Positions 1 through 30,859 of a DNA stretch of 32,000 nucleotides are shown here, in pieces. Made by a program: the position numbers and the translations under genes. The stretch comes from Synechococcus sp. A15-24 (GTDB lineage Bacteria > Cyanobacteriota > Cyanobacteriia > PCC-6307 > Cyanobiaceae). The notes beneath the pieces are model-generated. The model saw only the letters and a list, made by a program, of their open reading frames with translations, ran no database searches and was not told the origin of the DNA. The number at the start of each line of letters is the position of its first letter. Position 1 is the stretch's first letter. The stretch is from assembly GCF_014280195.1 (NCBI RefSeq), contig NZ_CP047960.1, positions 900,001-932,000 on the forward strand, written 5' to 3'.

Positions 1-28
1 TCTTGCATGGACTGAGAAGGAAGCCGCG

Positions 29-463
29 TTAAAGCATTTCAGGACGCAATCTGCTGGGCCGATAAGAGATCAGGAAGGCCTGTTGGCCGGCAGCCTCTGA
101 TTTCACGGCAGTGATCAGGTCTTCACCGGTGTTCCAGACCCAGACCTGGTCGTTATGGCTGTCGTGGTCGAGGCTGGTGCTTAGCGGTGGCCCATGTTGA
201 GCGCGCAGGCCTGCAAGCACCTCTGTCATGTCATCAATGGCGAACTCGTAAGCCAGCTTCGTCAGCCCTTGTTCTGGGTCGACTTCAAACGTGGCCTGTG
301 AAACGGGGAGTCGATCCAGAAACACATCTCTCTTGATGTAGCAACCGTCCTGCTCTTCGTTCAGGGCTTGGCCTTGACCCAGATGGATCGCCACTTGCTC
401 GAACGGCATGCCCCATGCCAGCCCTTCGACGCAGGCGTCCACCCTGCCAGCGCTGCAGAACAA
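29..463 (-). CDS. hypothetical protein, no family recognised (possibly disrupted)
   Basis: 144-codon ORF from TTG 463. The first ATG at 409 would give 126 aa (MPFEQVAIHLG...). GC is core-like. An in-frame TAA (476-478) separates it from a 14-codon ATG-initiated stub, MKVLHQLQNLLITA (479-520). Confidence 0.45.
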   Translation of the reverse strand: MFCSAGRVDACVEGLAWGMPFEQVAIHLGQGQALNEEQDGCYIKRDVFLDRLPVSQATFEVDPEQGLTKLAYEFAIDDMTEVLAGLRAQHGPPLSTSLDHDSHNDQVWVWNTGEDLITAVKSEAAGQQAFLISYRPSRLRPEML

Positions 464-723
464 AAGCAGCCCTACTTACGCCGTGATCAGAAGGTTCTGG
501 AGTTGGTGCAGCACCTTCATGCGGCGATCAATCACTGTTCAGATTTTGTTGGTTCGTAGGGCCGTTGCCTACTGCCTTTTGAGGACAAGCCCCTTAACAA
601 GTTCAATGTTGTGACGCCGCAGTTTGAGCAGTCTTGAAGCCCTTTAGCCCAGTTGAGGCTCGCCAGGCATCTAGGTGCACCTAAGCGAGGGTCTTCCTGG
701 TCAGTTTCCCTATACCCCCCGCC

Positions 724-1011
724 AGTTGTCCCAGGGTGGGGTTTTTGAGTGCCTGACTGGGATTTACCCTGGGACAACCCATTTTTTTCAGAGGAGTTGT
801 CCCAGGGTAGATGGGTACACCTATCTGTCTCAGAAGCGCCTGGGACATTTTCCGTCAATTCAGCCGATTGTCCCAGGGTTGTCCCAGGGTTGTCCCAGGC
901 CTACTTCCCTTGCAACGACTGGATTTAACCCTACCTGGGACAAAAATAATTCTCTGTCTCCCCGCGAGGCAGTCACGGCCCAATAAACCAAATTTCCGAG
1001 CCTTGTCCCGG
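724..1011. repeat. array of nine TTGTCCCAGG(G) boxes (iteron-like or integrase arm-site-like)
   Basis: Plus orientation: 726-737, 797-808, 868-878, 879-889, 890-899 and 1003-1011 (degenerate TTGTCCCGG). Minus orientation: 766-777, 839-847 and 934-943. The 14-mer AGTTGTCCCAGGGT is identical at 724-737 and 795-808. The three copies at 868-899 are head-to-tail with an 11-bp period. Confidence 0.85.
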
Positions 1012-1201
1012 TCGGTTCGGAATCGATCAAACCCTTCGCCTTAAGCCGCTGGAGCGATTTCCTGACCGCCGCGTCCACTTTCGGCCTACGGTTAGTGACT
1101 CCACCTCCTCGCGCCTCAGAGGCCCTTCTGCACGCAATAGAGCCCGCTCCTCTTGTGCGCTTCGATGTTTTGCAGATGTTGACCCGAGGGTTTAGCGCTG
1201 T
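860..1201 (-). pseudogene. possible remnant of a winged-helix DNA-binding protein gene
   Basis: The open frame between stop 1202-1204 and stop 860-862 has no ATG; the only listed start is GTG 1078. VRKSLQRLKAKGLIDSEPTGTRLGNLVYWAVT resembles the recognition helix plus wing of a MarR/ArsR-type wHTH. The C-terminal tail GQPWDNPGTIG is simply the translated TTGTCCCAGGG triple repeat. Confidence 0.25.
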
Positions 1202-1377
1202 TCAACATCTTTGGATCCCTGCAGGTGGCTTTCTGTTTGTTTAATAATTGATCTTGTTATGATGATTGCATCGATTTTTTGCATTGCTTGTGCTTCGAGT
1301 TGAGGTTGATGTTTAACTAATGTTGATTACCTCTTCCCTTGAAGCTTATTTGATACGGCCTTAACTGTAGAAAGCAA

Positions 1378-1749
1378 ATGACCTCACCTGTGATTGACGA
1401 TTTTTGTGTGGAAGATCTAAATGATGGGATCTATTCACTTAAGACTACCGAAATGTCTTCTGCTTGCTCAGTTGATAATGTGTCTGAGCTCGAGGAACTG
1501 GTGAGTCGAGAGTATAAGAATATTTGTTCTACATTGTGTTTAGATGACGATGGCGATCGACTCTTGCTGAAAGCTAAATGCTTAGCGCATGTTCAATTGC
1601 TTGGAGCTTTTTTTCATAATTACCAAAAATATTTATACAAGTCTTATGATCACGAGATGGCAAAGCATTTGTATGCTGATTGGTCTCGTCTAGGTATAGC
1701 ATTTAACGTAATTGCAAATGTTCAGAATTCCAGGTTGGGTGATGGTTGA
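1378..1749 (+). CDS. orphan hypothetical protein (acidic N-terminal half, 5 Cys)
   Basis: 123-codon ATG ORF in ~37-40% GC DNA, and the only long ORF on either strand here. No motif recognised. Confidence 0.55.
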   Translation: MTSPVIDDFCVEDLNDGIYSLKTTEMSSACSVDNVSELEELVSREYKNICSTLCLDDDGDRLLLKAKCLAHVQLLGAFFHNYQKYLYKSYDHEMAKHLYADWSRLGIAFNVIANVQNSRLGDG

Positions 1750-1948
1750 GCCTACATTGTTTAGTATGTATGTATAAATGTTGGAATTACTCGATGACCG
1801 CTTTTGTTATGACATGATCAGCAGCAACGCTGGTCTGTTTCTCCCGGTACGGAGTGGCACAGGCTTAAGAATTTCTTTGCGTGGGGTTTCGTTTTTTGCC
1901 TCTTTGCGCTTTCAGTAGTTGCTAATAATATTCAGCTCTAGCAATTCA

Positions 1949-2149
1949 ATGGCATCGACGTCTAAATCATGGATGCGTACCCGTGAACTTGCTGAATATC
2001 TCGGTATCCATAGGAATACGTTGGGTCGGATGATACGAGATGGTGTCTTGAGGGACGGATGCCATCGTTGCAAAATTAATCCCTTGTCTCCTCGAGGAGA
2101 ACATATTTGGGATAGAGATGCTGTTTTGATTGCCTTGAAAAGGCTCTAG
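1949..2149 (+). CDS. xis: excisionase / AlpA-MerR-type helix-turn-helix DNA-binding protein
   Basis: MASTSKSWMRTRELAEYLGIHRNTLGRMIRDGVL...HIWDRDAVL follows the short HTH_17-like pattern: ELAEYLG, then a turn, a recognition helix and a distal Trp. The ORF track starts at TTG 1919; ATG 1949 is preferred. Confidence 0.65.
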   Translation: MASTSKSWMRTRELAEYLGIHRNTLGRMIRDGVLRDGCHRCKINPLSPRGEHIWDRDAVLIALKRL

Positions 2150-2220
2150 TAAGCAATATTCGTTCCGTAGGTACGTTTTAGGGATGGTCTCTTTGGGGAG
2201 TCGTTGCTGCAGTGGTCCCA

Positions 2221-2241
2221 AAGTGGCTTACACAGCCACTT
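2221..2241. terminator. hairpin between convergent xis-like and orfD genes (possible bidirectional terminator)
   Basis: AAGTGGCT-tacac-AGCCACTT forms an 8-bp perfect stem. On the minus strand it is followed by TTTGGG. No strong U-run follows on either strand. Confidence 0.3.
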
Positions 2242-2269
2242 GTGGGGTTGATGCTCACTGTTGTTTGTT

Positions 2270-3295
2270 TCAGGTGTTTAGTTCTCCCCGAGCAATTCTT
2301 CTGTAAGTTGCAAGAACAATGGCTTTGGATGATTGATCTTTGCCATCACTTGTCTTGCCTTGGCAATATGAATTGTCGGCCAATGTGTCAAAGTCTATCT
2401 GCATAGCATGTAAGTTTTTGCAAACCTCCTCAGGCGTTATGCCTAGATGATCTCGCATGGCGTGGAGCTTCGAGCAGTTGACTAAAATTTCTTCTTTACT
2501 TGTTTCTGTAAATCTTTCACGATATTGCTTTGATCCCCCTCCATAGCCCATTAATGCTCCTCCGGCCATAAGTACAACGTATCCACCTGTCATTCCCATT
2601 CCGCCTGCGGCAAGTGAGCCTCCTCCCAGGAACGCGAGTCCTGCTGATGTTGCTGCGGCTCCTGTAAGTCCCATCATTCCGCCGATCATCCCAGCGGCAT
2701 AAGGAGCTACCAGAAGAAGTGCAAGAGCACCAGCCCCAACCCAGATCCACGTGTAATTTTCTCCGTTGACTGTCTTTACGATCTTCTTTGTGCATGCTTC
2801 ATAGTCATCCCGCATGCTTTTAAGCGTGACTGCCGAAAATGTACGCAAAACTGGAAGGTTGCATATGTATTTACAGTAATTATTGAAGTCAATATCGTCC
2901 GTTCTTAGTTTTTGGTATCGGGTGTCTCCCTCTGTGAATTCATGGAAAGGTGCCCATGTAGCTGCCTCAACGCAAAAAGCTGCTGTTTTGGTGTTATGTA
3001 AGTTTGCCTCGTTTAGAGCTTCGTGAAGTTTATCCTCATTAATCAGTTCGCCTAGTTCGAGAAGATCGCAGGTGGTTCTTTTCCATTGTTCGCACCAATC
3101 TGCCTTGAGTTTCCTGTAGCGATCTTGGTCTACTATGTCTGATGAATCTCTGAAAATATTTTTTAGAGATTGGCGGTTCGGAAGGATGCTTTCCTTTGAT
3201 GATGCCTTTAGAGCCCAGTACTTGACGGATGCCAGGAGCCGAACTTCTGATTGATCGAAGGCAAAGCTGTCAGATGCAGGAGAGATCGCGTTCAT
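2270..3295 (-). CDS. orphan membrane protein with central glycine-zipper segment
   Basis: 341-codon ATG ORF with GAGG 3 nt upstream of the ATG. Residues ~182-254 (nt 2534-2752) read WIWVGAGALALLLVAPYAAGMIGGMMGLTGAAATSAGLAFLGGGSLAAGGMGMTGGYVVLMAGGALMGYGGG, with 22 Gly in 72 residues and no charged residue. The flanking N-terminal (~180 aa) and C-terminal (~85 aa) domains are hydrophilic and contain Cys. Low GC. Confidence 0.7.
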   Translation of the reverse strand: MNAISPASDSFAFDQSEVRLLASVKYWALKASSKESILPNRQSLKNIFRDSSDIVDQDRYRKLKADWCEQWKRTTCDLLELGELINEDKLHEALNEANLHNTKTAAFCVEAATWAPFHEFTEGDTRYQKLRTDDIDFNNYCKYICNLPVLRTFSAVTLKSMRDDYEACTKKIVKTVNGENYTWIWVGAGALALLLVAPYAAGMIGGMMGLTGAAATSAGLAFLGGGSLAAGGMGMTGGYVVLMAGGALMGYGGGSKQYRERFTETSKEEILVNCSKLHAMRDHLGITPEEVCKNLHAMQIDFDTLADNSYCQGKTSDGKDQSSKAIVLATYRRIARGELNT

Positions 3296-3304
3296 GCCTC
3301 TGCC

Positions 3305-3387
3305 GAATTTCTTCTATTTACTTTAGGTTTGCGTTTTCCTTCTGTTGAATTTCTTCTATTTACTTTAGGTTTGCGTTTTCCTTCTGT
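3305..3387. repeat. perfect 41-bp direct repeat x2 (42-bp period) in the orfD upstream region
   Basis: GAATTTCTTCTATTTACTTTAGGTTTGCGTTTTCCTTCTGT occurs at 3305-3345 and again at 3347-3387, separated by a single T. The proximal copy ends 10 nt upstream of the orfD ATG (3293-3295, minus strand). Confidence 0.95.
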
Positions 3388-3452
3388 CGATCAATTGATA
3401 TCTTTTTGCTTTTGAATTGGTCTTGTAGGAATTAATGGTATTGGCTTATCTT

Positions 3453-3484
3453 AGCTTGAGCAAGCAAGTGTTCAAGCTTTTTTT
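3453..3484 (+). terminator. intrinsic-terminator-like hairpin on the + strand with no + strand gene upstream
   Basis: AGCTTGA (3453-3459), a 12-nt loop, TCAAGCT (3472-3478), then TTTTTT (3479-3484). The stem is AT-rich, so stability is moderate. Confidence 0.35.
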
Positions 3485-3582
3485 GAATATCTCTGACACG
3501 TGCGTCAATTTCTTTTGAGAAATTCTGCTTGGTAGTTTCCTGAAGGACCCTTGCTGAATTAGTCGCTTGCTTCTGTTTTTTC

Positions 3583-4806
3583 CTATCCGAAGACTTCTCG
3601 GATGATTTCGTTAGAGCGAAAACGGTGATGGTCGGAATATGTCTTGCGGAGCATGTCTTCAGAGGTTGAGAGAAGGCTAGCGATCTGGAGAACGTCTAGT
3701 TGTTTCACTTCTAAAAGCCGTCTCGCTGCGTTATGCCGAAGAGTTCTAAGTCCGATCAGCTCTCGATCTTTCTTCAAGCCACGTTCTTCTGATAGTTCTC
3801 GCCAGATCCAACCGTGGATTGACGCAAGCTCTTGTTCGGTTTTTCTCTGTTGATCTTGACTGGGTTTTTCATCCCATGGGCTTGCCGCGTCTCTTAGGCG
3901 TTGTGGAGGTGTGTTGAGTCGCTTGACGCCGATGGCCTCCAAAAGTTGCTTCCATGACGGGGATAGTTTGGATTGTCGATTCCTGCCGCGTTTGCTGTCT
4001 CGACAATCCACATAGACCCCAACGCCTACTTCCAGACTTCCTGGAGACGTCCATAACAGCCTGGAGGCCATCACCATGGCTCCACGCGCACCTGTGATAG
4101 CGACCCAAGATGTCAGCCAGGCAGCAGCGTGAGCTAAGTCGGATTCCGGAGCTCTATCCCAGAGGTTCAGGATCACTCGCTGGATCTCTGCCGGGTCTAC
4201 GGGTTTTCCCTGTCCAGCCTGTGGAGCTTGGTAGCCGTAGTCCAGGCCAGGATTGAGTTGCTTCCCGTCAGTGGCAATCCCATACAGCAAGCATGCGGAC
4301 GAGATCGCGTCTCTGCGGCTCCGCGCTTCGGCTGGCCAGCTTTGGATCCAACGCAGAAGGTCATCTCTGCTGGTGGCCCTGCAGTTGTTCTCTGAAAGCC
4401 ACTGAACACAGGACTTCAGCCATTTCACCCGTCGCGCAGCGTGCTTCTCAGAGTTCCCTGAGTGTTCGATTCGTCCTAAGGCTTGTCGTTGGTAAACCCC
4501 CAGCGAGCTGCCAACGGGTCCGCCCGCATTCCTTTGGAGGTTGTTGTCGAATTCGGCGAGTGCCGTATCAACAGCCGTTGAGATCACGACGTCACCGTCT
4601 TGGTATGACGCGTTTAACTTCAGCCACTTCTGGTCACCGCTTCCTTCAGGCCTGGTGTTGAAGGTCAGGTAGATCAACTCCTCTCCACTGGGCCTTGTCT
4701 TGCGCCGCAGTGACAGCCCGAAGCGATCAGAGTGCTTGGTGCGGAGATACTTGGCTAGGCCCTTCAGCCTTGCGCTGTTGCGGCGAAGCCCAGTGGCTGC
4801 TGTCAT
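3583..4806 (-). CDS. int: site-specific tyrosine recombinase (phage-type integrase)
   Basis: 407 aa. The C-terminal catalytic signature is visible: WVAITGARGAMV (box I Arg), LRTLRHNAARRL (HxxR) and RKTYSDHH (nucleophile Tyr). GC is intermediate (47-58% on spot counts). Confidence 0.88.
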   Translation of the reverse strand: MTAATGLRRNSARLKGLAKYLRTKHSDRFGLSLRRKTRPSGEELIYLTFNTRPEGSGDQKWLKLNASYQDGDVVISTAVDTALAEFDNNLQRNAGGPVGSSLGVYQRQALGRIEHSGNSEKHAARRVKWLKSCVQWLSENNCRATSRDDLLRWIQSWPAEARSRRDAISSACLLYGIATDGKQLNPGLDYGYQAPQAGQGKPVDPAEIQRVILNLWDRAPESDLAHAAAWLTSWVAITGARGAMVMASRLLWTSPGSLEVGVGVYVDCRDSKRGRNRQSKLSPSWKQLLEAIGVKRLNTPPQRLRDAASPWDEKPSQDQQRKTEQELASIHGWIWRELSEERGLKKDRELIGLRTLRHNAARRLLEVKQLDVLQIASLLSTSEDMLRKTYSDHHRFRSNEIIREVFG

Positions 4807-4807
4807 T

Positions 4808-4862
4808 CAGGGACAGAGTGGCTTGCACGCCTAACCTATCCCTGATTTGTCCCTAAAGCCAC
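4808..4862. promoter_or_regulatory. interleaved inverted 7-mers abutting the integrase start (candidate arm/operator sites)
   Basis: AGGGACA 4809-4815 pairs with TGTCCCT 4848-4854. GTGGCTT 4818-4824 pairs with AAGCCAC 4856-4862. The TGTCCC core matches the 724-1011 boxes. Confidence 0.4.
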
Positions 4863-4920
4863 TCGCACAAGGTTGTGCCCAGTTGCACAGCTTGAGACCA
4901 CGAGAGAGTTGAATCCAGTC

Positions 4921-6117
4921 ATGGCAGGAGATCTGAGTGCAACTGAGGGCATCTCGCGAGATGATCAGGGCTGGCCGTGGTGGCCGCTGCTGCCGCTCTA
5001 TCCCTATGGCCGCCGCCACACGCTGTTCAGTGAGTTGATCCCTGGCCAGCTCTGGAGTCTGGAGCAGCTGCAGGGGGTGTATTACGTGGCTGTTCCGGTG
5101 CGGCTCACCGTTGCCAAGGTGCCCGGTGGCTTGATGTTGGTGAACCCATTGCCGCCGACCGGTGAGGTTCGCCAAGCCATTGCCAGGCTGGAACAGCAGC
5201 ATGGGCCCGTGCGCACGATCGTGCTGCCCACCGCCTCTGGTCTGGAGCACAAGCTTCCCCTGGGACCCCTGGCTCGGGCGTTCCCCAAGGCTGATGTCTG
5301 GGTCTGCCCCGGGCAGTGGAGCTTCCCGGTTCAGTTGCCTCTGGCCTGGTTGGGCGTTCCGGCACGCCGCACGCATGTGTTGTTAGACGATGGCGTCCCC
5401 CATGGCGATGTTTGTGAGTGGTTGTCGTTGGGACCCCTCGACCTTGGCGTCGGTCGCTTCCAGGAGATCTCCTGTTTTCATAGTCCGTCAGGCGCTCTGC
5501 TGGTCACCGATGCCCTGGTGGGCATCAGTGTTGAGCCGCCTTCGCTGTTTGATCTCGACCCCACGGCGCTGTTGTTCCACGCCCGCGAGCGGGGTGATCA
5601 GCTTTTGCACGACACGCCCGAGGCGCGTCGACGTGGTTGGGCGCGGCTGGTGCTGTTTGCCTCCTACCTGCGGCCGGAACCGTTGGAGGTGCCAACCCTC
5701 AAGGAGGTGTTTCGCCATGCCTTTCGCCCCGGTCTGCGATCGGCCAAAGCCCACTTCGGGCTCTATCCCTTTCGGTGGAAGCCGGGTTGGGAGGCCGCCG
5801 CTGCTGAGTTGATGGGGGAAGCGGAGCCCAAAATTCAGGTGGCGCCGGTGTTGGAGCGGTTGGTGTTACCCCGTGCCAAGAAATCTCTGCTCGATTGGTT
5901 GGAGCAGCTGGGTCAATGGAGCGATCTGCGCTGGCTGGTGTCAGCCCACTACAGCGCTCCCATCGGTTTCACGACAGGAACGTTGGATTCACTTGTTCGG
6001 GATCTGACCGAACGCCCCTGGGCACCCAGCACCAGCAACTGGGAGTTTCTTGGATCGATTGATCAACGCTTGCTGGATCTCGGCGTAGTGCCTGAGCAAC
6101 CTCGTCTCAGAGGTTGA
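4921..6117 (+). CDS. DUF4336-family conserved protein (cyanobacteria/plastid lineage)
   Basis: 398 aa from ATG 4921. The strings GWPWWPLLPLYPYGRRHT, VLPTASGLEHK and CPGQWSFP fit this conserved family as I remember it. High GC3. The ORF-track start 4873 is a TTG inside the putative att region. Confidence 0.8.
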   Translation: MAGDLSATEGISRDDQGWPWWPLLPLYPYGRRHTLFSELIPGQLWSLEQLQGVYYVAVPVRLTVAKVPGGLMLVNPLPPTGEVRQAIARLEQQHGPVRTIVLPTASGLEHKLPLGPLARAFPKADVWVCPGQWSFPVQLPLAWLGVPARRTHVLLDDGVPHGDVCEWLSLGPLDLGVGRFQEISCFHSPSGALLVTDALVGISVEPPSLFDLDPTALLFHARERGDQLLHDTPEARRRGWARLVLFASYLRPEPLEVPTLKEVFRHAFRPGLRSAKAHFGLYPFRWKPGWEAAAAELMGEAEPKIQVAPVLERLVLPRAKKSLLDWLEQLGQWSDLRWLVSAHYSAPIGFTTGTLDSLVRDLTERPWAPSTSNWEFLGSIDQRLLDLGVVPEQPRLRG

Positions 6118-6460
6118 GTTCGTCGTCCGGCTCGATGGCCATCTGCTCATCAGCGAACAAGGTCTCTTCCAGCTCCTTGCGCTGCTCCATCTGACGCAGG
6201 AAGTAGCCCGTCATCATTGCTGAAGCAAGCATGTTTGCCAGGTTGTCGCGGTTGGCTGTGACCTTCACTTCGAAGTGTTCACCGGGGAGCATTCCCAGCA
6301 ACCCTTGGACGTTGTGGCGAATGATGTCCTGGATGTCGTTGCTGGCGGACTTCGCGACACGCTGCAAGGTGTCCGGTGTTTGCTCCTGCAGGTACTGGAT
6401 CAGGCTGTTCCCCGCTTGACCGTCGTTGCTGTCAGTGGTCAGGAACTCGGGGTTGAACAT
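6107..6460 (-). CDS. DUF760-family conserved protein
   Basis: 117 aa with the MMTGYFLRQMEQR motif characteristic of DUF760. It overlaps the convergent 4921-6117 gene by 11 nt. Confidence 0.8.
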   Translation of the reverse strand: MFNPEFLTTDSNDGQAGNSLIQYLQEQTPDTLQRVAKSASNDIQDIIRHNVQGLLGMLPGEHFEVKVTANRDNLANMLASAMMTGYFLRQMEQRKELEETLFADEQMAIEPDDELNL

Positions 6461-6508: not shown

Positions 6509-7102
6509 TCAACTGCCATCAGCAGGGGCGGGGATCCGTAAGGGACCGAACTGCTGCAACGGCCAGTAGCGCCAGATCGCTGTTCCGATCACGTTGCGCT
6601 CCGGCAACGGTCCCCACAGATGGGAATCCAGGCTGGCGTTGCGGTTGTCACCCATCACCCACAGCTGATCTTCGGGCACCTGAATTGGTGCCATGACGTA
6701 GTCCATGGATTCGCTGATCCAGGGCTCTTTGATCTCCTCACCATTGCGGCGCAGAACGCCGTTCTCCACCATCAACTGATCACCGGGCAAGCCCACCACC
6801 CGTTTGATCAAGGCCGCGTTGGGGTCGTATCCAGCAGCCACCAGCTGCTGCGGCGGTGCAAACACCACCACATCCCCGCGCTGCAGGTGCCGGTGCAGGC
6901 GTCGGGTCAGCCGAGGTCGGATCTTCTCCACCAGGATCCGGTCCTGCAGCTGCAGGGTGGGCAGCATCGACCCCGATGGAATCCAGCGCGGTTCCACCAC
7001 CACCCAGCGCAGTAACAGCGCCAGCAGTGCCCAGACGATCAGGTTCCGCCAGAACCCTTTGGAGCTCTCCTGGGCGGGGGGTGTGGTGGATGGGGGCGTC
7101 AT
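6509..7102 (-). CDS. lepB: signal peptidase I
   Basis: 197 aa from ATG 7102, with an N-terminal TM helix (LIVWALLALLL), the Ser box IPSGSMLPTL, the Lys box KRVVGLPGD and box E GDNRNASLDSH. Confidence 0.92.
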   Translation of the reverse strand: MTPPSTTPPAQESSKGFWRNLIVWALLALLLRWVVVEPRWIPSGSMLPTLQLQDRILVEKIRPRLTRRLHRHLQRGDVVVFAPPQQLVAAGYDPNAALIKRVVGLPGDQLMVENGVLRRNGEEIKEPWISESMDYVMAPIQVPEDQLWVMGDNRNASLDSHLWGPLPERNVIGTAIWRYWPLQQFGPLRIPAPADGS

Positions 7103-7201
7103 TGACCCAAGATCGCACCAGCCAGAACCACTGCACTGACCACTGCCCGCGCCAATCTGCAGGCGGCCCTGACGCTGCTGGACGGTCTGCGTCAGCAGGG
7201 C

Positions 7202-8839
7202 ATGACGCGGCTGGTGCTGTGTCCGGGCAGCCGCTCCGGTCCATTGGCGGCTGCTGCCGGGCTGTTGGCAGCCCGAGGTGATCTGGCGTTGACCACGGCC
7301 ATCGATGAACGGTCGGCGGCCTTCCTCGCCCTGGGCATGGCCACCTCCCGTGGTCGTGCTGTGGCGGTGGTCACCACCTCCGGCACAGCCGTCGCCAACC
7401 TGCTGCCGGCAGCCGTTGAAGCCGACCGTTCCACCCAGCCGCTGCTGCTGCTCACCGCTGATCGCCCCGCCCGGTTGAAAAATTGCGGTGCCAATCAGAC
7501 CGTGAATCAGGAGCAGTTTCTGCAGTCGGTCTGCCGTTGGCTGGGCCATGGAGCCCCGGAGGGACTGGCCAGCCAGCCGCCTCAAGCGCTTTTCGATCTT
7601 GCCCATGAGGCTTGGCGGCACTGCCACGGCCGCCCCCCTGGACCGGTGCAGCTCAACCTTCCGTTTGAGGAACCGTTGCATGGGTCCCCGGAGGATCAGC
7701 AGTCGGTGCAGGTGTCCGGCCTGCAGCGCTCGGCGCCAGCACCATCAAGTGATTCAACGCTGGGGGCAGCCCCTCAGCTCAATCCCAACCAAGCGGGCGT
7801 CGTGGTGGCCGGCCCCTGGCGTGGATTGGCTCCAGCCTTGCCGGCGTATCAGCAGGCTCTGCGGCAGTGGTTGGCCCGTAGCGGTTGGCCTTTGTTAGCG
7901 GATCCACTGGCCGCCATCCCCGCCGAGTGTCCTGGGCAGCTGGATGGCTGGGAGCTTCAGCTTGATCGCCTGCAGCTGGCGCCAGGCAGCCCCGTGCTGC
8001 GTCTGGGGCCACTGCCCGCCAGTCGGCGGCTGGAGGCATGGCTGCAGCGGCAGACGGGGCCGCAACTGCTGATCAGTGAGGGGGAACCCCGTGGTCTCGA
8101 CCCGCTGGGGCTTGCAGATCAATGGAGTGGCGGGCTGGCGGCCTGGTGGGCGGAGCAGAACCAGGACTCCACAGTCGCATCGACACCGGAGCCAGTGATG
8201 CCTCAGTCCGGGATGGCGGCTTTGCTGCGGCAGCGGTTGCCACTGCAGGGAGCCGTGAACGAACCGGCCCTGGCCCATTGGTTGTCGCTGTTGCTGCCGC
8301 CGCAGTTGCCGGTGATGCTGGCGGCCAGTTCCCCCGTCCGGGATTGGCTGATCTGGGGCGGAATCAAGGCTCAAAACCGCCGCTGCTTCAGCTTCCGCGG
8401 AGCATCCGGCATCGATGGAACGCTCTCGTTGGCCATGGGACTGGCCATGGAGCAGGGCCCCCTGGTGCTGGTGACAGGCGATCTGGCCCTGCTGCACGAC
8501 AGCAATGGCTGGTTGCATGGCGCCCAAGGCAGCCCGCCGCTCCTGGTGCTGCTGATCGACAACCAGGGCGGCGGCATCTTCCAGCAGCTGCCGGTTGAGT
8601 CGAAGCAGTTCGATCGCCTCTTCGCCATGCCCCAGCGGGTCAACCCACTGGCCCTGGCGGCTGCCCACGGCATCGACGGGCGACAGGTGGCCTGCCTGGA
8701 GGATCTGCCTAAGGCCCTCGAGTGGGGGCTGGCTCAGGGACGGCCTGCTCTGTTGCGGCTGGCGACGGACCGTGAGGCGGATGCCCGCTTGCGAACCCAG
8801 CTGCGCTCCGCTGCGCAGAATGCAGAACCTCTGCTCTGA
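7202..8839 (+). CDS. menD: 2-succinyl-5-enolpyruvyl-6-hydroxy-3-cyclohexene-1-carboxylate (SEPHCHC) synthase
   Basis: CPGSRSGPL lies near the N-terminus and the ThDP-binding motif [12 protein letters not shown] near the C-terminus. menB follows directly. The true start is probably upstream of 7202 (see finding). Confidence 0.9.
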
Positions 8840-9718: not shown

Positions 9719-10264
9719 ATGCTTCCGGTCACCCTCCCAGAACCACTGCCCCTGCTGCAGGCGGCCTCGATGGATTCGCTGATGGAAGCCCTGGCGTCGC
9801 TGCCGGAAGAACTGCGTGAGCAGAAGGATCGGCACATCGTTCTCTTGCGGGGGCGGCGTCGTCTGCTGCTGCTCGAGAACGGCAACCTGAGCCTCGCCTT
9901 CCCCGTAGCCACTGGCATGCCTGGTTGGGAGACCCCCACCGGCAACTTCGCGGTGTTTCAGAAGATCGATCAACCCGTCTGGGTGCACCCCGTCACCGGT
10001 GAGCGGCTGGAGGAGCAGGGACCAGACAACCCCCTGGGCAGCCATTGGATCGCCTTTCAACGCGATTGCCTCGGCCGCGATGCCCATGACGGCGATCGCT
10101 GGATCAAGATCAAGGGCTGCACCACGACCGGCTTTCACGGCACCCCCCACCGCTGGACCGTGGGCCGGGCCATCTCCCATGGCTGTGTGCGCCTCTACGA
10201 CGAGGATGTGCGCAGGCTTTATGGGCAGGTGAAGCTCGGTACCCAGGTGACCGTGCTGCCCTGA
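9719..10264 (+). CDS. L,D-transpeptidase (YkuD/ErfK family) domain protein
   Basis: Carries the HGTPH...SHGCVRL catalytic His/Cys signature. ATG 9719 is chosen because the ORF-track start 9566 lies inside menB. Confidence 0.85.
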
Positions 10265-15233: not shown

Positions 15234-16160
15234 CTACTGGGATTGGAGGGCAGCGTCCCCTCGCCAGCGTCGCTGCCAGGCATTGGTGGGTTCTAGGTCG
15301 CAAGCCTGTTGTTCAAGAACCCGTTTCTCGAGGATCTCGCTGGAGCTGGCCTCACCATCGGGATCGCGGAAGGGAACGGCGGCGCGGGTGAACAGATGCT
15401 CCATCTCCATCGGGCTGAGGGGACGCCAGCCAGGACCTTCCGCTGTGCATGAGCCGCCCGGTTGCACCGCCATCGTTCCGCTGCTCCAGCCGACCCGTTC
15501 CCCCGGGGCCGGCAGCAGTGAGTACAGCTGCAACCCGGCCCGTTGAAGACTGGCCCGCACCGCCGCCGACCGGCAGTAGGTGAGCAGCCGTCCCCCCGGC
15601 ACCAAGCGTGCGGAGAGTCCAGCGAGGAATTCCTCGGTCCATAGCTCGGGGCAGCGTTGGGGTGAAAACGCGTCCTGCAGGATCAGGTCGAACCTCTGCT
15701 GGTCCGGAATCCGCGCGAGCGCGGTTCTTGCATCTCCCCAGAGCTGATATCCGACATGCGGAGGATCGCTCCAGCCATCATTGGCCTGGATCCCCTCCAG
15801 TCGCTCCAGAACATCTGCTCTCCACAGGTCCCGGAATGTCGGTTGCTCGAGGGCCAGATCCAGCGGTCGCCGGTCCAATTCCAGGCCCCACCACTGCACG
15901 GCAGGGGCTGGCTCGGGCAGGTCTTCCAGAATCACCGCTGTGTTGTAGCCAAGGCCAACGCAAACATCGAGGATCCTGAGACGATCGGCAGCACAGAAGC
16001 GGTTCAGCTCAGCCGGTCTCGAGAACTTCGCCCGTGCTTCGTTCAGCGCGCCAGCTGAATTGTGGAACGCCTCTGCGAACCGCTCGCTTTTCAGGCTGAA
16101 ACTGCCATCGGCCGTGGGGTATATCCGCAGGCCATCGGCATCAGCAGCGGAGCCGGTCAA
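15234..16160 (-). CDS. MnmC-like SAM-dependent methyltransferase (tRNA mnm5s2U-type, DUF752-like)
   Basis: [13 protein letters not shown] is a SAM-binding loop and [18 protein letters not shown] resembles the D-G-F-A/S-P motif of MnmC/MnmD methyltransferases. The start overlaps the aroA 3' end by 20 nt. Confidence 0.75.
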
Positions 16161-17466
16161 GGTCGTCCCAGAAGCTGGGGTAACTCACGGCTGCAGCATC
16201 GCTGCGCTGCAGGGTCGAATCGCCAGACGCCAGCAATGAGGCCACCGCCAGGCTCATCGCCACCCGGTGGTCGGTTTCGCTGTCCAGAGCAGCGCCCGTC
16301 AACGGGCGTCCGCCGCGGATGGTCATGCCGTCCTCGTGCTCCTCGATCTCAGCACCCATGGCCTTGAGCTGGCGTGCCATCACCGCAAGGCGATCGGTTT
16401 CCTTCACCCGCAGCTCCGAGGCGCCGCTGATCCTGCTTTCGCCATCGCAGAAGCAAGCGGCGACGCTGAGGATCGGAACCTCATCCACGAGGCGGGGCAT
16501 GATTTCTTCGCCGATAGAAAACGGTTTTAACGGTCCATGGGTGATCTTCAGGTCGCCCACCGGTTCACCGGCCACATCGCGACGGTTCAGCACCTCAATC
16601 TGAGCATTCATCTGCTCGAGCACCTCGAGAATGCCTGTTCGGGTGGGATTGAGGCCGACGTTCTCAATGGTGAGGTCCGCGCCAGGCACCAGGGCACCGG
16701 CCACCAGCCAGAAGGCTGCTGAGCTGATGTCTCCCGGGACGACCACCTGTTGGCCCTTCAGGGTGTTGCCGGGGCGAACGGTGATGTGACGCCCCATCTC
16801 GCCCCCCACCTCCAGATCAGCACCAAAGGCCCGCAGCATCCGCTCGCTGTGGTCACGGGACTGGGCCGGTTCGATCACGGTGGTGGTTCCGTCGGCCGTA
16901 ATGGCCGCCAGCAGCAGGGCTGACTTCACCTGAGCACTGGCCACAGGCGTTCCGATCACCGTGCCACGCAGGCTTTGGCCCTGCACCGCCAACGGAGCGA
17001 GGTTGCCGCTCTCACGGCCCCGAACAACTGCCCCCATCGAGGCCAGTGGCTGACCCACCCGTCGCATCGGCCGGCGACGCAGGGAGGCATCACCATCCAG
17101 CACGAAGTGACGGCCGGCCCGTCCAGCCAGCAACCCCAGCATCAGGCGCATGGTGGTGCCGGAGTTGCCGCAATCGAGAATTTCAGCGGGTTCCTGAAGC
17201 CCGTCCAGGCCCACCCCCTCAACGGTGACGAGGCCGCCGGCCTCGATCGGGCTGATCCGCACACCCATTGCCCGCAGGCAAGCGGCGGTGCTGATGGGGT
17301 CTTCCGCCGGCAGCAGACCGTCGATGGTGGTGGTGCCCTCCGCGATGGCACCGAACAGCAGGGAGCGGTGGGAGATCGACTTGTCCCCCGGCACCTTCAT
17401 ATGACCCGACAGCGACCCGCCGGCCTTGAGTTCACGGGCAGGGTGATAAGGGCCGTTGGCGCTCAA
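16141..17466 (-). CDS. aroA: 3-phosphoshikimate 1-carboxyvinyltransferase (EPSP synthase)
   Basis: 441 aa with [21 protein letters not shown] at the N-terminus and LRVKETDRL. Confidence 0.94.
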
Positions 17467-28389: not shown

Positions 28390-28485
28390 GCCGGGACGTC
28401 TGGTACAGATGCTCTTTTGCTTCAGCACTCCGAAGCGACTGGGGTGGTTTGGTTTGTTTGGCTGTCTCCACAGCAGGGTGAAGCC

Positions 28486-28734
28486 ATGGCCATTTTCATC
28501 CACCGTCGTCGTCATCCCATCCAGAACCGCTTGCGGCAGTGGCAGCAGGTGCGCACCTGGGCTCGGCTGATCCGGGAGGCCGAAGCGCTCTGGCATGTGA
28601 ACGTTCGTGCGTTGCGGCGCATGGGTGCTGAGGAACTCTCGCAGTTGCTGGAAGAAGTGCCTCCGGCTCAACGTCGCCGCATCAATCGTTGGTTGGATGG
28701 TTATTGCGTGTCCACACGATTGCGACGGGAGTAA
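28486..28734 (+). CDS. small basic hypothetical protein
   Basis: 82 aa from ATG 28486 (MAIFIHRRRHPIQNRL...). It has the best codon-position GC bias among three overlapping ORFs here. No family recognised. Confidence 0.5.
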   Translation: MAIFIHRRRHPIQNRLRQWQQVRTWARLIREAEALWHVNVRALRRMGAEELSQLLEEVPPAQRRRINRWLDGYCVSTRLRRE

Positions 28735-28815
28735 ACCGACTTGACCCGAATCAAGCGCCTTGATTCGTCAATGACATGAACGAGAACCAGCACGAGGCTT
28801 GGAGATTGAACTTTC

Positions 28816-28845
28816 CTTAACCTGGTCCTAACGACGGATTCGTTT
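28816..28845 (+). promoter_or_regulatory. Pho box (PhoB-type binding site) of the pstS promoter
   Basis: Three 8-bp direct repeats with 3-bp linkers: CTTAACCT ggt CCTAACGA cgg ATTCGTTT. The site ends 45 nt upstream of the pstS ATG. Confidence 0.7.
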
Positions 28846-28890
28846 TAAGTTGGCTACTCCTAGGACGCCAACTTCCCCATTAGGCCTCCC

Positions 28891-29865
28891 ATGAGCTTCG
28901 CTAAGAAGGCTCTTCTCGTCTCTTCCGTGCTTGCCCTTGGGGCTGGCATGTCCGCCTCCGCCGCAGAAAAACTGAACGGTGCTGGCGCTTCTTTCCCCGC
29001 CAAGATCTACCAGCGTTGGTTCGCTGATCTGGCCAAGTCCGGTGGCCCTCAGGTCAACTACCAGGCTGTCGGTTCCGGCTCCGGCCGTAAGGCTTTCATA
29101 GACCAGACCGTGAACTTCGGTGCATCGGATGATCCGATGAAGAAGAAGGACATGGCCAAGGTCAAGCGCGGCGTGGTCCAGATCCCCATGGTTGGCGGCA
29201 CCATCGCCTTCGGCTACAACAAGCCCGGTTGTGATCTGAAGCTCACCCAGGAGCAGGCCGTCATGGTCGCCATGGGTCAGATCCGTAACTGGCAAGACCT
29301 CGGCTGCCAGCCTGGCACCATCACCTGGGTGCACCGTTCCGATGGCTCCGGCACCACCAAGGCCTTCACTAACTCCATGCAGGCCTTCTCCTCCAAGTGG
29401 ACCCTGGGCACCGGTAAGTCCGTCAAGTGGCCTGCAGGCGTTGGCGCCAAGGGCAACTCCGGTGTTGCCGGTGTTATCCAGAACCGTATGGGTGCCATCG
29501 GTTACGTCAACCAGTCCTACATCAAGGGCAAGGTCGTTGCTGCTTCTCTGCAGAACAAGTCCGGTGAGTACCTGAAGCCCTCCGTGACTGCTGGTGCCCG
29601 CGCCCTGAACGGCATTCAGCTGGACAAGGACCTGGCTGGCAAGAACCCCAACCCCACCGCCAAGGGTGCTTATCCCATCGCAACCCTGACCTGGGTTCTG
29701 GCGTACAAGACCGGCAACGGCAAGGACGCCAAGGTTGTTCAGGAAGCCTTCAATTACATGCTGGGCGATGCTGCTCAGGACAAGGCTCCTTCCCTGGGCT
29801 TCGTGCCCCTGAAGGGCGACATCCTGGCCAAGGCCAAGGCTGCTGTGAACAAGATCGGCGAGTGA
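28891..29865 (+). CDS. pstS: periplasmic phosphate-binding protein of the Pst ABC transporter
   Basis: Signal peptide MSFAKKALLVSSVLALGAGMSASA, then GAGASFPAKIY and SDGSGTT. The codon usage looks highly expressed. Confidence 0.94.
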   Translation: MSFAKKALLVSSVLALGAGMSASAAEKLNGAGASFPAKIYQRWFADLAKSGGPQVNYQAVGSGSGRKAFIDQTVNFGASDDPMKKKDMAKVKRGVVQIPMVGGTIAFGYNKPGCDLKLTQEQAVMVAMGQIRNWQDLGCQPGTITWVHRSDGSGTTKAFTNSMQAFSSKWTLGTGKSVKWPAGVGAKGNSGVAGVIQNRMGAIGYVNQSYIKGKVVAASLQNKSGEYLKPSVTAGARALNGIQLDKDLAGKNPNPTAKGAYPIATLTWVLAYKTGNGKDAKVVQEAFNYMLGDAAQDKAPSLGFVPLKGDILAKAKAAVNKIGE

Positions 29866-29876
29866 TGACTGGCTGA

Positions 29877-29899
29877 GCCGTCGGTTGATCCGACGGTTT
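29877..29899 (+). terminator. rho-independent terminator 1 after pstS
   Basis: CCGTCGG-ttgat-CCGACGG followed by TTTT. Confidence 0.7.
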
Positions 29900-29910
29900 T
29901 GAACAGTTTC

Positions 29911-29937
29911 GAGGGGGCCCAAGGGCCCCCTTTTTTT
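29911..29937 (+). terminator. rho-independent terminator 2 after pstS
   Basis: AGGGGGCCC-aa-GGGCCCCCT GC-rich stem followed by TTTTTTT. Confidence 0.85.
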
Positions 29938-29973
29938 ATTCTTTTCTCACTCTTGGACAAAAGTTAGGCGGGT

Positions 29974-30003
29974 CTTAACCGAATCACATCCCGCCCTTTG
30001 CCT
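29974..30003 (+). promoter_or_regulatory. Pho-box-like site upstream of ptrA
   Basis: CTTAACCG aat CACATCCC gcc CTTTGCCT has the same 8-3-8-3-8 layout. The first repeat matches the consensus in 7 of 8 positions; the distal repeats are weaker. Confidence 0.45.
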
Positions 30004-30054
30004 GGGACGCATGTTGCGCTCCATACAGTTCGGATGTATCCGCGGAACATCTCA

Positions 30055-30690
30055 ATGGTTGCGATTCCCTCCCGTGAACTCTCCCCAAGACGTGACGGTT
30101 TCAGGGAATTGCTGGAAACCAACTACCAGAAACGCAACCTTGTTCATCTGACGGCGGGCAGTGTTGTCCCGTTGCTGAAGAACAGCATCTGGCTTGTTAT
30201 GCGCGGCATGGTCAAGCTTGGTGCCGTATCTGTGCATGGCGATGAGTTGCTGCTTGGGCTTGCCGGACCGAACGAGCCTTTTGGTGAACCACTGAGCACG
30301 GTGGAGGCCTATGAAGCGGTGGCACTGAGTGACTGTGACCTTCTCTGCTTGAGCACCAGTGAGGTGGAGCAGGCACCCCAACTCGCTCTGGCGATGATGG
30401 ATGCCATTGGTGCTCGTTACCGGCAGGCCGAGTACATGTTGGCTCTGCTCGGTCTGCGCCGCGTGGAGGAGCGGGTGCGCGGTTTTCTGGAAATGTTGGC
30501 CCAGGACTATGGCCAACCCTGTGACGACGGCTTGCGACTCAATCTGCGGCTGACCCATCAGGAGATGGCCAGTGCTCTGAGCACCACCCGCGTCACGGTG
30601 ACCCGGGTGATCGGTCTGCTGCGTGATGAGGGCTGGTTGAAGATCGATGCCCAGCGGCACCTGGTGATCGCCCACCTGCCACGTCGCTGA
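30055..30690 (+). CDS. ptrA: Crp/Fnr-family transcriptional regulator, PtrA-like (phosphate-stress regulator next to pstS)
   Basis: An N-terminal cNMP-binding-like beta-roll is followed by the C-terminal HTH LTHQEMASALSTTRVTVTRVIGLLRDEGWL. The position next to pstS is as described for marine Synechococcus. The start is ATG 30055; alternatives are 30034 and 29998. Confidence 0.8.
   Translation: MVAIPSRELSPRRDGFRELLETNYQKRNLVHLTAGSVVPLLKNSIWLVMRGMVKLGAVSVHGDELLLGLAGPNEPFGEPLSTVEAYEAVALSDCDLLCLSTSEVEQAPQLALAMMDAIGARYRQAEYMLALLGLRRVEERVRGFLEMLAQDYGQPCDDGLRLNLRLTHQEMASALSTTRVTVTRVIGLLRDEGWLKIDAQRHLVIAHLPRR

Positions 30691-30782: not shown

Positions 30783-30859
<77 letters not shown>

Follow-up and report, generated by a model that had tools for sequence, protein, structure and literature searches.

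A probable integrative island inserted into the 5' end of the DUF4336 gene of a marine Synechococcus

This study concerns a 32,000-nucleotide stretch of the genome of Synechococcus sp. A15-24 (NCBI RefSeq assembly GCF_014280195.1, contig NZ_CP047960.1, positions 900,001 to 932,000; hereafter the window, numbered from its first base), and in particular the DNA that precedes and enters a gene of the DUF4336 family. We propose that an integrative genomic island of a family apparently confined to marine picocyanobacteria has its DUF4336-proximal part at bases 1-4994, and we give this reading a probability of roughly 0.8. Every homologue of its putative integrase gene, int, for which upstream sequence was recovered lies about 114 bp upstream of DUF4336, in divergent orientation and behind a conserved spacer. 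The cargo differs between these loci, and many genomes carry no integrase at DUF4336 and have a different DUF4336 5' end. An earlier reading made from the sequence alone (the sequence-only reading) had suggested an integrative island of the integrase and excisionase kind at a target other than a tRNA gene, and the same-site homologues together with the int-free genomes bear this out. The gene content at the site is not identical in all relatives.

The int homologues come from the complete genome of KORDI-52, a contig resembling MIT S9509, metagenome-assembled genomes (MAGs) and metagenomes, and Logan, JGI and ENA contigs; individual comparison loci are referred to below by L numbers. Sister loci were viewed with flanks of up to 10 kb, the far ends of larger elements lying beyond. 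Fragments of the integrase are also present at DUF4336 in Prochlorococcus MIT 0707. The DUF4336-DUF760-lepB-menD synteny of the window is common to 80 picocyanobacterial loci.

Insertion point within the DUF4336 gene

The attachment (att) core is the 14-bp sequence TGGCCGCTGCTGCC at 4981-4994, which lies inside DUF4336 at codons 21-25 (WPLLP), the real ATG of the gene being at 4921. Using a model of the conserved arm (P') that adjoins the far junction, we found 16 attL-type junctions in 10 other loci, all of them on the DUF4336 strand and upstream of the gene. Each consists of a displaced 5' fragment of DUF4336, the core TGGCCGCTGCTGCC and a conserved arm of 110-130 bp. All 16 break at one and the same point, where the core is followed by ACTTAGC in the junctions and by GCTCTA in the gene. 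Up to three such junctions stand in tandem (WH 8017, MIT S9451), and they also occur in WH 7803 and in Prochlorococcus MIT 0707. Alignment of the window with L001 and L081 gives 93-96% identity over 4401-4980 and 100% in the core, dropping to about 74% from 4995 on. Because the junctions break at the core and the identity steps down there, the boundary between element and host is placed at 4981-4994.

Two classes of DUF4336 5' end were found. The int-bearing loci and the relics carry ATGGCAGGAGATCTGAGTGCAACTGAGGG (MAGDLSATEG...), and this type was seen only together with int or with int relics. Genomes free of int start DUF4336 differently, often directly behind a piece of DNA that looks like the 3' end of a chromate-transporter gene. 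Within the 4921-4980 stretch, 29 of 29 bases are identical in 14 int-bearing or relic loci from different hosts, and the replacement end is similar in length to the displaced type (20 versus 19 codons). Judged from these comparisons, codons 1-20 of DUF4336 are part of the element, which supplies them in frame and presumably supplies a promoter for the gene as well. The element, placed merely beside DUF4336 by the sequence-only reading, in fact reaches into its coding region.

The far junction of L110 shows, in order, host DNA, a DUF4336 5' end of the int-free type up to TGGCCGCTGCTGCC, and unrelated DNA that opens with two TGTCCC boxes and two TGTGCAAsTG repeats. Beyond these repeats stand an array of boxes, a winged-helix gene that is intact, a homologue of orf123 (52% identity) and a xis gene (87% identity). 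Since the array, winged-helix gene, orf123 and xis stand directly behind this junction, L110 ties the attL-type junction to the type of element found in the window.

Several loci preserve remnants of such insertions. In L008 (2934-2991), the TGTCCC boxes of the int-side arm are fused to the DUF4336 start and int is gone; in L012 (9540-10043), a displaced 5' fragment lies about 500 bp upstream of an element-type 5' end and all element genes are deleted. Both are minimal relics. L020 holds at 9996-10098 a relic of the int-side arm with a 5' end of the MAGDLSATEG type. Some 290 bp downstream of this relic, from 10376 onward, DUF4336 has an N-terminus of a third type (MNSRAD...), and a copy of that type is found at an attL-type junction at 1516 of the same locus.

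Genes, arms and cargo of the island

The features of the locus are collected in Table 1.

Table 1. Features at and around the DUF4336-proximal part of the island (window coordinates).
Feature	Position	Strand	Remark
orf144	29-463	-	small gene, far (P'-proximal) side of the island
Left copy of GCCCAGTTG	647-655	+	judged a chance match
Array of eight (G)TTGTCCCAGG(G) boxes	726-943		probable protein-binding sites
Winged-helix remnant	860-1230	-	frameshifted pseudogene; short open reading frame at 860-1078 (-)
Low-GC block	1245-3582		holds orf123, xis, orf341 and intergenic DNA
orf123	1378-1749	+	acidic protein of 123 aa
xis	1949-2149	+	excisionase-family helix-turn-helix protein of 66 aa; frame open back to TTG at 1919
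orf341	2270-3295	-	variable cargo gene
Two 42-bp tandem repeats	3299-3382	-	upstream of orf341
int	3583-4806	-	putative divergent tyrosine recombinase of 407 aa, inward-facing
P arm of the element	4807-4920		114-bp spacer between int and DUF4336
Replacement 5' coding end of DUF4336, element-borne (MAGDLSATEGISRDDQGWPW)	4921-4980	+
Att core TGGCCGCTGCTGCC	4981-4994	+	attR crossover region
Host body of DUF4336	4995-6117	+	Pfam DUF4336, E 8.6e-117

The 407-residue int product had no match at E ≤ 0.1 in Pfam, NCBIfam, PHROGs or PADLOC, and a profile of 15 family members found no match among the PDB sequences. Its AlphaFold (AF2) model has a predicted local distance difference test score (pLDDT) of 77. 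The top Foldseek matches of this model in the PDB were all tyrosine recombinases, namely XerH (5jjv, E 3.3e-4), Cre (4crx), IntI (2a3v) and Flp. The Foldseek probability was 1.0 for XerH, Cre and IntI (not for Flp), and the template modelling (TM) scores were low, at 0.32-0.38, as expected when domain orientations differ. The model has the two-domain fold of tyrosine recombinases, with a core-binding and a catalytic domain, preceded by an N-terminus predicted as three strands and a helix, which looks like an arm-binding domain. The family keeps R241 (in TGAR), K272, R354, R357, H358 and Y390 without variation, and in an alignment with the distant relative P0178 these residues fall in the part of that protein that matches PF00589 just below the cut-off; P0178, P0179 and P0182 all touch PF00589 below that threshold. 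Manual alignment places the invariant R354 at the His II position and T381 at the His/Trp III position. The candidate active-site residues are R241, K272, R354, R357, T381 and Y390. Hence the label of tyrosine recombinase facing into the block, given by the sequence-only reading, stands as regards the inward open reading frame (ORF), the fold and the motifs, while the sequence libraries return no match. We regard int as a putative, very divergent member of the tyrosine recombinases, identified by predicted fold and motifs and by no sequence library.

The int family is very small, with 38 close homologues, or 39 representative clusters in an exhaustive profile search of 1.84 billion proteins. 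The gene is full length and the family shares 140 invariant columns across hosts. The 5' third of the window copy (4401-4806) is 93% identical to L001 and L091 (KORDI-52) and the remaining two thirds about 70%; identity with L081 is about 91% over the whole gene. This mosaic pattern suggests recombination within int.

The excisionase-type helix-turn-helix gene recognized by the sequence-only reading was confirmed: the xis product scores above the cut-offs of Pfam HTH_17 (29.7 bits; cut-off 27) and TIGR01764 (31.1 bits; cut-off 28.8) and also matches PHROG 66. Homologues of xis occur in nearly all int-bearing loci, and this co-occurrence makes Xis a candidate for the directionality factor of int. 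The two further ORFs described as lacking a recognizable motif, orf123 and orf341, are indeed unmatched in Pfam, NCBIfam and PHROGs, and orf123 has no match in PADLOC either. They do not form a two-gene cargo: orf123 travels with xis in other elements and only orf341 is variable. Only six homologues of orf123 were found, among them the one in L110 mentioned above and a copy in L115 that is 87% identical. By its position, orf123 is a conserved partner directly upstream of xis and is read here as an element gene rather than cargo.

Both arms of the element carry motifs of two classes. One is the box TGTCCC(T/A)G, frequently repeated at 11-bp intervals; the other is the repeat (C/T)TGTGCAAsTGG, whose copies are spaced by about two helical turns. 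The P arm, which is conserved in all int-bearing loci, contains GGGACA at 4810-4815, TATCCCTG at 4837-4844 and TGTCCC at 4848-4853, followed by the direct repeats CCAsTyGCACA at 4859-4869 and 4879-4889, 20 bp apart. These motifs are likely binding sites for the N-terminal domain of int and for Xis.

About 400 bp inside the element, eight copies of TTGTCCCAGG form an array with starts at 726, 797, 868, 879 and 890 on the plus strand and at 768, 839 and 934 on the minus strand, with spacings of 71 bp and 11 bp. At up to one mismatch the whole 32 kb contains 10 matches to this box against 3.2 expected, and none of 100 shuffles reached 10. The array shares the TGTCCC core and the 11-bp tandem spacing of the boxes in the conserved P' arm. 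With the boxes of the P arm, it agrees with the sequence-only observation that TGTCCC-core boxes cluster at both ends. L110 has a collinear array at 6990-7230 with the co-varying box TTGTCCCATTGG, in which the boxes carry the altered flank CCCATTGG instead of CCCAGGG in both orientations. As the altered flank runs throughout the L110 array, it points to a sequence-specific binding protein and not to chance or a simple hairpin. The 726-943 array probably consists of protein-binding sites, either arm-type sites of the integrase or iterons; the N-terminal domain of int and the adjacent winged-helix protein are the candidate binders.

The block at 1245-3582 has a guanine-cytosine (GC) content of 42.7%, compared with 63.4% in the rest of the window (standard deviation 2.6, range 57-68%, 1-kb windows), and GC falls sharply at about 1245. 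In tetranucleotide usage the block lies at a distance of 0.737 from the background, equal-size background windows giving 0.204 (standard deviation 0.027, maximum 0.284). Both measures are far outside the background range, in agreement with the atypical composition noted from the sequence alone. The value of 37-40% GC given there holds for 1200-2000 and 3296-3582 but not for the block as a whole, and int itself has 55% GC. The claim that no tRNA or tmRNA lies at the junctions was also correct: the sole tRNA of the window is tRNA-Pro GGG at 30783-30856 on the minus strand, and an Rfam scan of 1-6200, repeat-rich regions included, returned nothing at E ≤ 1.

The left side of the window also proved to be island DNA. 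Window 3-652 is 83% identical by BLAST to L018 (WH 8017) 7852-8505, a segment that begins about 45 bp after an attL-type arm, and the WH 8017 homologue of orf144 (168 aa) starts about 70 bp after this arm (7679-7808). Because the homologous DNA of WH 8017 directly adjoins an attL-type arm, orf144 belongs to the island, and the view of the 29-463 region as core genome is not sustained. The similarity of L115 to the window covers 149-2049, at 88% identity; beyond this L115 has lost part of xis, and after 2240 its DNA is unrelated and GC-rich. L115 is collinear with the window across 652, which is a module boundary inside the island, and it keeps the linkage of orf144 to the box array.

The copy in the window is partly decayed, through a frameshift in the winged-helix gene and a premature stop in orf144. 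The winged-helix stretch gives weak PaaX/LexA winged-helix matches. The intact L110 protein is matched in two pieces, each in a different frame (EGPLRREEVESL versus ERPLRRSEIETM, and AAVRKSLQRLKAKGLI versus SAIRKSLQRLEARELI), and the stretch reads in one frame in L115 and L110. In orf144, an in-frame stop lies in the signal-peptide region upstream of the start at 463; the stop is absent from WH 8017 and L115, and the N-terminus is intact in L115. The genes int, xis, orf123 and orf341 are intact in the window. The attL of this copy is predicted some 170 bp before the window begins.

About 100 proteins from marine and freshwater picocyanobacteria, 331-345 aa long and without a Pfam match, make up the family of the orf341 product. 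The AF2 model of this product (pLDDT 75, predicted TM-score 0.80) is a helical bundle in which N- and C-terminal helices pack around a middle stretch, and the fold had no match in structure searches of the PDB and BFVD. Residues ~186-262 form a glycine- and alanine-rich hydrophobic stretch that is almost invariant (GAAATSAGLAFLGGGSLAAGG.GM.GGY...MAGGA). This central stretch alone is matched by the PADLOC profile PDC-M09A, in 27 of 29 members examined; the match spans 35-106 residues of biased composition (best single-protein E 3.3e-11) and leaves the N- and C-terminal domains unmatched. L115 keeps orf123 and has no orf341 at this position, and orf341 is therefore taken as the variable part and orf123 as the conserved one.

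The two 42-bp repeats upstream of orf341 are 95% identical, two bases differing. The region has a single promoter-like match, TCGACA-17-TAAAGT (minus strand, 3390-3362), and it overlaps the upstream copy; the downstream copy repeats the -10 hexamer and fails the criteria of the promoter scan. Homologues of orf341 lie in flexible regions near transposases, BrnA, a TaqI-like gene and a CARF-related gene. In L111 (5339-7493), L113 (2008-4956) and L114 (5754-7963), which come from freshwater and other picocyanobacteria, they stand among small unannotated ORFs, with Fic, nucleotidyltransferase, BrnA, transposase, TaqI-like and CARF-related genes nearby. A conserved partner gene was considered and dropped, as the neighbours differ among these three loci; those in L111 and L113 match no PDC-M09 profile. 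The orf341 product weakly resembles PDC-M09A and may be described as an orphan glycine-zipper membrane protein. From its context and architecture it might be a membrane-inserting effector of an abortive-infection type of defence, a tentative assignment that we place somewhat short of even odds.

The cargo of the sister elements is varied. One carries DrmA, DrmB and DrmC with an MmeI-type methylase (DISARM); KORDI-52 carries a type I restriction-modification (R-M) system with PDC-S02 and RmuC; another has an MkoA-like helicase with PDC-S02 and BrxA (Mokosh/BREX-like). L001 encodes a 924-aa DUF3854/P-loop protein of replication type (primase-helicase-like), and the cargo of other loci consists of strings of small ORFs. 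Two positions are used for the cargo: the interval from int to xis (KORDI-52, and orf341 in the window) and the side beyond xis. A defence context, anticipated by the sequence-only reading, is thus a property of the family.

Tandem stacks of two to four islands without int were seen in L018 (WH 8017; 2289-2489, 5393-5597 and 7600-7808), L012 (210, 2239 and 5646), L013 (6024 and 7991) and L021 (WH 7803; 4526 and 6122). At the start of every stacked island stand a displaced piece of the DUF4336 5' end, the 14-bp core and then the conserved arm. A chromate-transporter-like 3' piece belongs to several of these displaced fragments, which means that the host-type arm has been duplicated. The MIT S9509-like locus L094 has an integrase of 59% identity, a different spacer sequence and two Xis-like genes about 600 bp apart (15450-15608 and 16212-16388); it may represent two elements in tandem, and within 10 kb it shows no common-type arm. 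Four loci with picocyanobacterial synteny, L001 (CAXQPR010000123.1), L039, L054 and L079, are filed as MAGs of Salipiger bermudensis, Klebsiella or Bradyrhizobium, probably owing to binning or labelling errors in the public records.

Two observations concern the window outside the island. GC dips to 54-57% over about 1.8 kb near tRNA-Pro (28400-30200), which might be another small flexible region. The signal-peptidase ORF at 6509-7681 on the minus strand overlaps the start of menD and, at 390 aa, has about twice the size of its counterpart in relatives (196-205 aa, Peptidase_S26); it has probably been extended too far, the DNA here being GC-rich.

Proposed mechanism and competing explanations

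Based on the junctions, the arms and the gene content, we propose the following scheme. Int and Xis would recombine a circular form of the element through the core TGGCCGCTGCTGCC, about 20 codons into DUF4336. The int-side arm would bring a replacement 5' end, comprising the first 20 codons and a presumed promoter, and because of this replacement DUF4336 would stay intact after insertion. The displaced original 5' end would be left at the far junction, adjoining the conserved P' arm. The TGTCCC boxes and TGTGCAAsTGG repeats on both arms would likely be bound by the N-terminal domain of int and by Xis. Cargo would be accommodated in slots on both sides of xis, mostly anti-phage defence in the sister elements; in the window the sole variable cargo would be orf341, with its own duplicated promoter-like repeat, taken here as a membrane-acting defence effector. 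In its most extended form the scheme describes a still-active integration platform of marine Synechococcus that would be new to the literature, in which an orphan recombinase would serially stack defence islands at the DUF4336 core, the int-less ones in trans through their attL-type arms, and orf341 would be the founding member of a new family of anti-phage effectors that act on membranes. Taken as a whole, this extended form is speculative and in our judgement rather unlikely.

Several points weigh against the island reading and this scheme. No attL, no core-like sequence with up to three mismatches and no far arm were found in window 1-4900. The prediction of the far end derives from WH 8017, a single locus. 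The left end of L001, tried as a shared left end, is unlike that of the window, showing no significant similarity (219 of 500 shuffles scored as high), and the attL of L001 is truncated, its far junction being cut off just after the start codon. A promoter scan of 4807-4920 gave no sigma-70-like match. The proposed active site of int departs from the canonical R-K-H-R-[H/W]-Y, Arg standing in place of His II and Thr in place of His/Trp III, and because it is non-canonical the catalysis by int is unproven. For orf341, the suggested function draws on gene context and on similarity to a candidate family that is itself untested, a similarity that is glycine-rich and covers part of the protein. Neither an excised circle (attP) nor a pair of empty and occupied sites from one population was seen. 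In addition, most stacked islands carry no integrase and end in copies of the host-type arm (the chromate-transporter-like 3' fragment with the int-free 5' end), not in the int-bearing arm. Such ends are not predicted by simple serial integration of int-bearing circles, and could reflect mobilisation in trans, capture of flanking DNA or homologous exchange.

The last of these possibilities leads to the alternative that survives best, namely a replacement island: the hotspot would be kept by homologous recombination between its flanks, and int would be a fixed passenger, non-functional or domesticated. Direct repeats of the host-type arm of about 100-150 bp, usable for homologous exchange, flank most of the int-less stacked islands; the int gene is mosaic (5' third 93% to L001 and L091, the rest about 70%); the window copy shows decay and the excised form was not found. 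However, homologous exchange would not give 16 junctions at one exact position beside an arm with structured repeats. The full-length int with its 140 invariant columns and the presence of Xis in nearly all loci also speak against it, and the replacement 5' end accompanies int in hosts whose gene bodies are about 25% divergent. We consider a replacement island improbable.

It is very improbable that the locus is a decayed prophage or phage satellite rather than a cargo-carrying island. An integrase and excisionase module of low GC is typical of prophage ends, the only PHROG match above noise is Xis, and a primase-helicase-like gene such as that of L001 occurs in satellites. Nevertheless, no capsid, terminase, tail or lysis gene was found in the window or in the sister elements examined, and the cargo consists of defence systems. 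Among 2.9 million viral contigs there was no relative of int and no attP- or attL-like sequence.

The sequence-only reading had drawn the element as a self-contained unit of 4.2 kb (647-4885) between a core gene at 29-463 and DUF4336, bracketed by the 9-bp direct repeat GCCCAGTTG as its att core. The repeat is present at 647-655 and 4877-4885, BLAST homology to WH 8017 stops at 652, and the right copy lies in the locally palindromic TGTGC-CCAGTT-GCACA (4875-4889). The palindrome was rejected as a core, as its left half-site (TTGTGC) is not conserved in the family and the direct repeat CCAsTyGCACA is conserved instead; the right copy of GCCCAGTTG falls inside the second of these repeats. Chance should give the 125-bp int-proximal arm some 1.6-2.3 9-mers in common with the 3.6-kb interior, and each related locus has 2-6 random shared 9-11-mers of this kind. 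Six of the nine bases are kept in the homologous WH 8017 stretch, which reads AGCCCAGCTTCGG. An allele in which a single GCCCAGTTG joins the 29-463 region to DUF4336 was sought among the relatives and none was found; WH 8017, the only genome sharing the 29-463 ORF, has 1.5 kb of other genes ahead of DUF4336. With L115 collinear across the left copy, orf144 lying beside an attL-type arm in WH 8017, and all 16 junctions and the identity step at the TGGCCGCTGCTGCC core rather than at 4885, the 4.2-kb unit has almost no credibility left, and the repeat, though real, is neither the att site nor a bracket of the element.

Relation to known elements and significance

In the literature searched, which was incomplete, no paper names DUF4336 as an integration target or describes a DUF4336 hotspot. 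The closest mechanistic parallels are the elements specific for dusA and SXT at prfC, in which the element supplies a new N-terminus and a demonstrated new promoter and the target stays functional (PMC8409611). Like these, the DUF4336 element is inserted site-specifically a few codons into a conserved protein-coding gene, has its att core in the 5' coding region with a new in-frame N-terminus, and places an inward tyrosine recombinase next to attR with a separate directionality factor. It differs in its target, its picocyanobacterial host, the lack of conjugation or mobilisation genes and the tandem stacking, and its promoter for DUF4336 is presumed only. Unlike the DusA-associated and SXT integrases, int has no detectable sequence relationship to any profiled integrase family.

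Tycheposons carry variable cargo, insert repeatedly at one site, where they seed a larger island, and leave partial copies of their target (10.1101/2020.12.28.424599, PMC8995045). Tycheposons of Prochlorococcus, with tycheposon-like insertions at tRNA-Phe in Synechococcus, and the DUF4336 islands have in common the marine picocyanobacterial hosts, the variable cargo and the stacking at one site; the DUF4336 islands also have the inward site-specific integrase at one end and the optional replication module. However, they adjoin no tRNA or tmRNA gene and leave displaced gene 5' ends instead of partial tRNAs, and the cargo seen in them serves defence, not nutrient acquisition. The sequence comparisons suggest an element with a mechanism like that of the dusA- and prfC-targeting elements, a layout like that of tycheposons and an integrase that matches no profiled family.

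Int also resembles the heterobivalent integrases of the lambda type in having a predicted N-terminal domain ahead of the core-binding and catalytic domains, and the element shares with lambda-type systems the repeated short boxes on both arms away from the core and the small helix-turn-helix excisionase. The two motif classes, the additional eight-box array about 400 bp inside and the apparent Arg and Thr at the His II and His/Trp III positions set it apart. For orf341, the glycine-zipper stretch of PDC-M09A lies at a similar relative position in proteins of similar length. The PDC families are untested candidates predicted from their embedding in BREX, DISARM and type I R-M systems, the same systems that fill the sister elements at DUF4336. 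PDC-M09 is a multi-gene candidate, whereas orf341 has no identified partner gene.

None of the profile libraries tried detects int, and surveys of islands based on them will therefore overlook the int family. The locus offers a defined 14-bp core, conserved arms, a dedicated int and Xis and many natural before-and-after junctions, and the int system could serve as a site-specific integration tool for organisms with few genetic tools. Marine Synechococcus is known to house its flexible genes in islands. The loading of these islands is understood mainly for elements linked to tRNA genes, and the DUF4336 locus represents a protein-coding target. Its cargo slots are full of DISARM, type I R-M and BREX/Mokosh-like genes, and unannotated cargo such as orf341 is therefore a reasonable anti-phage candidate.

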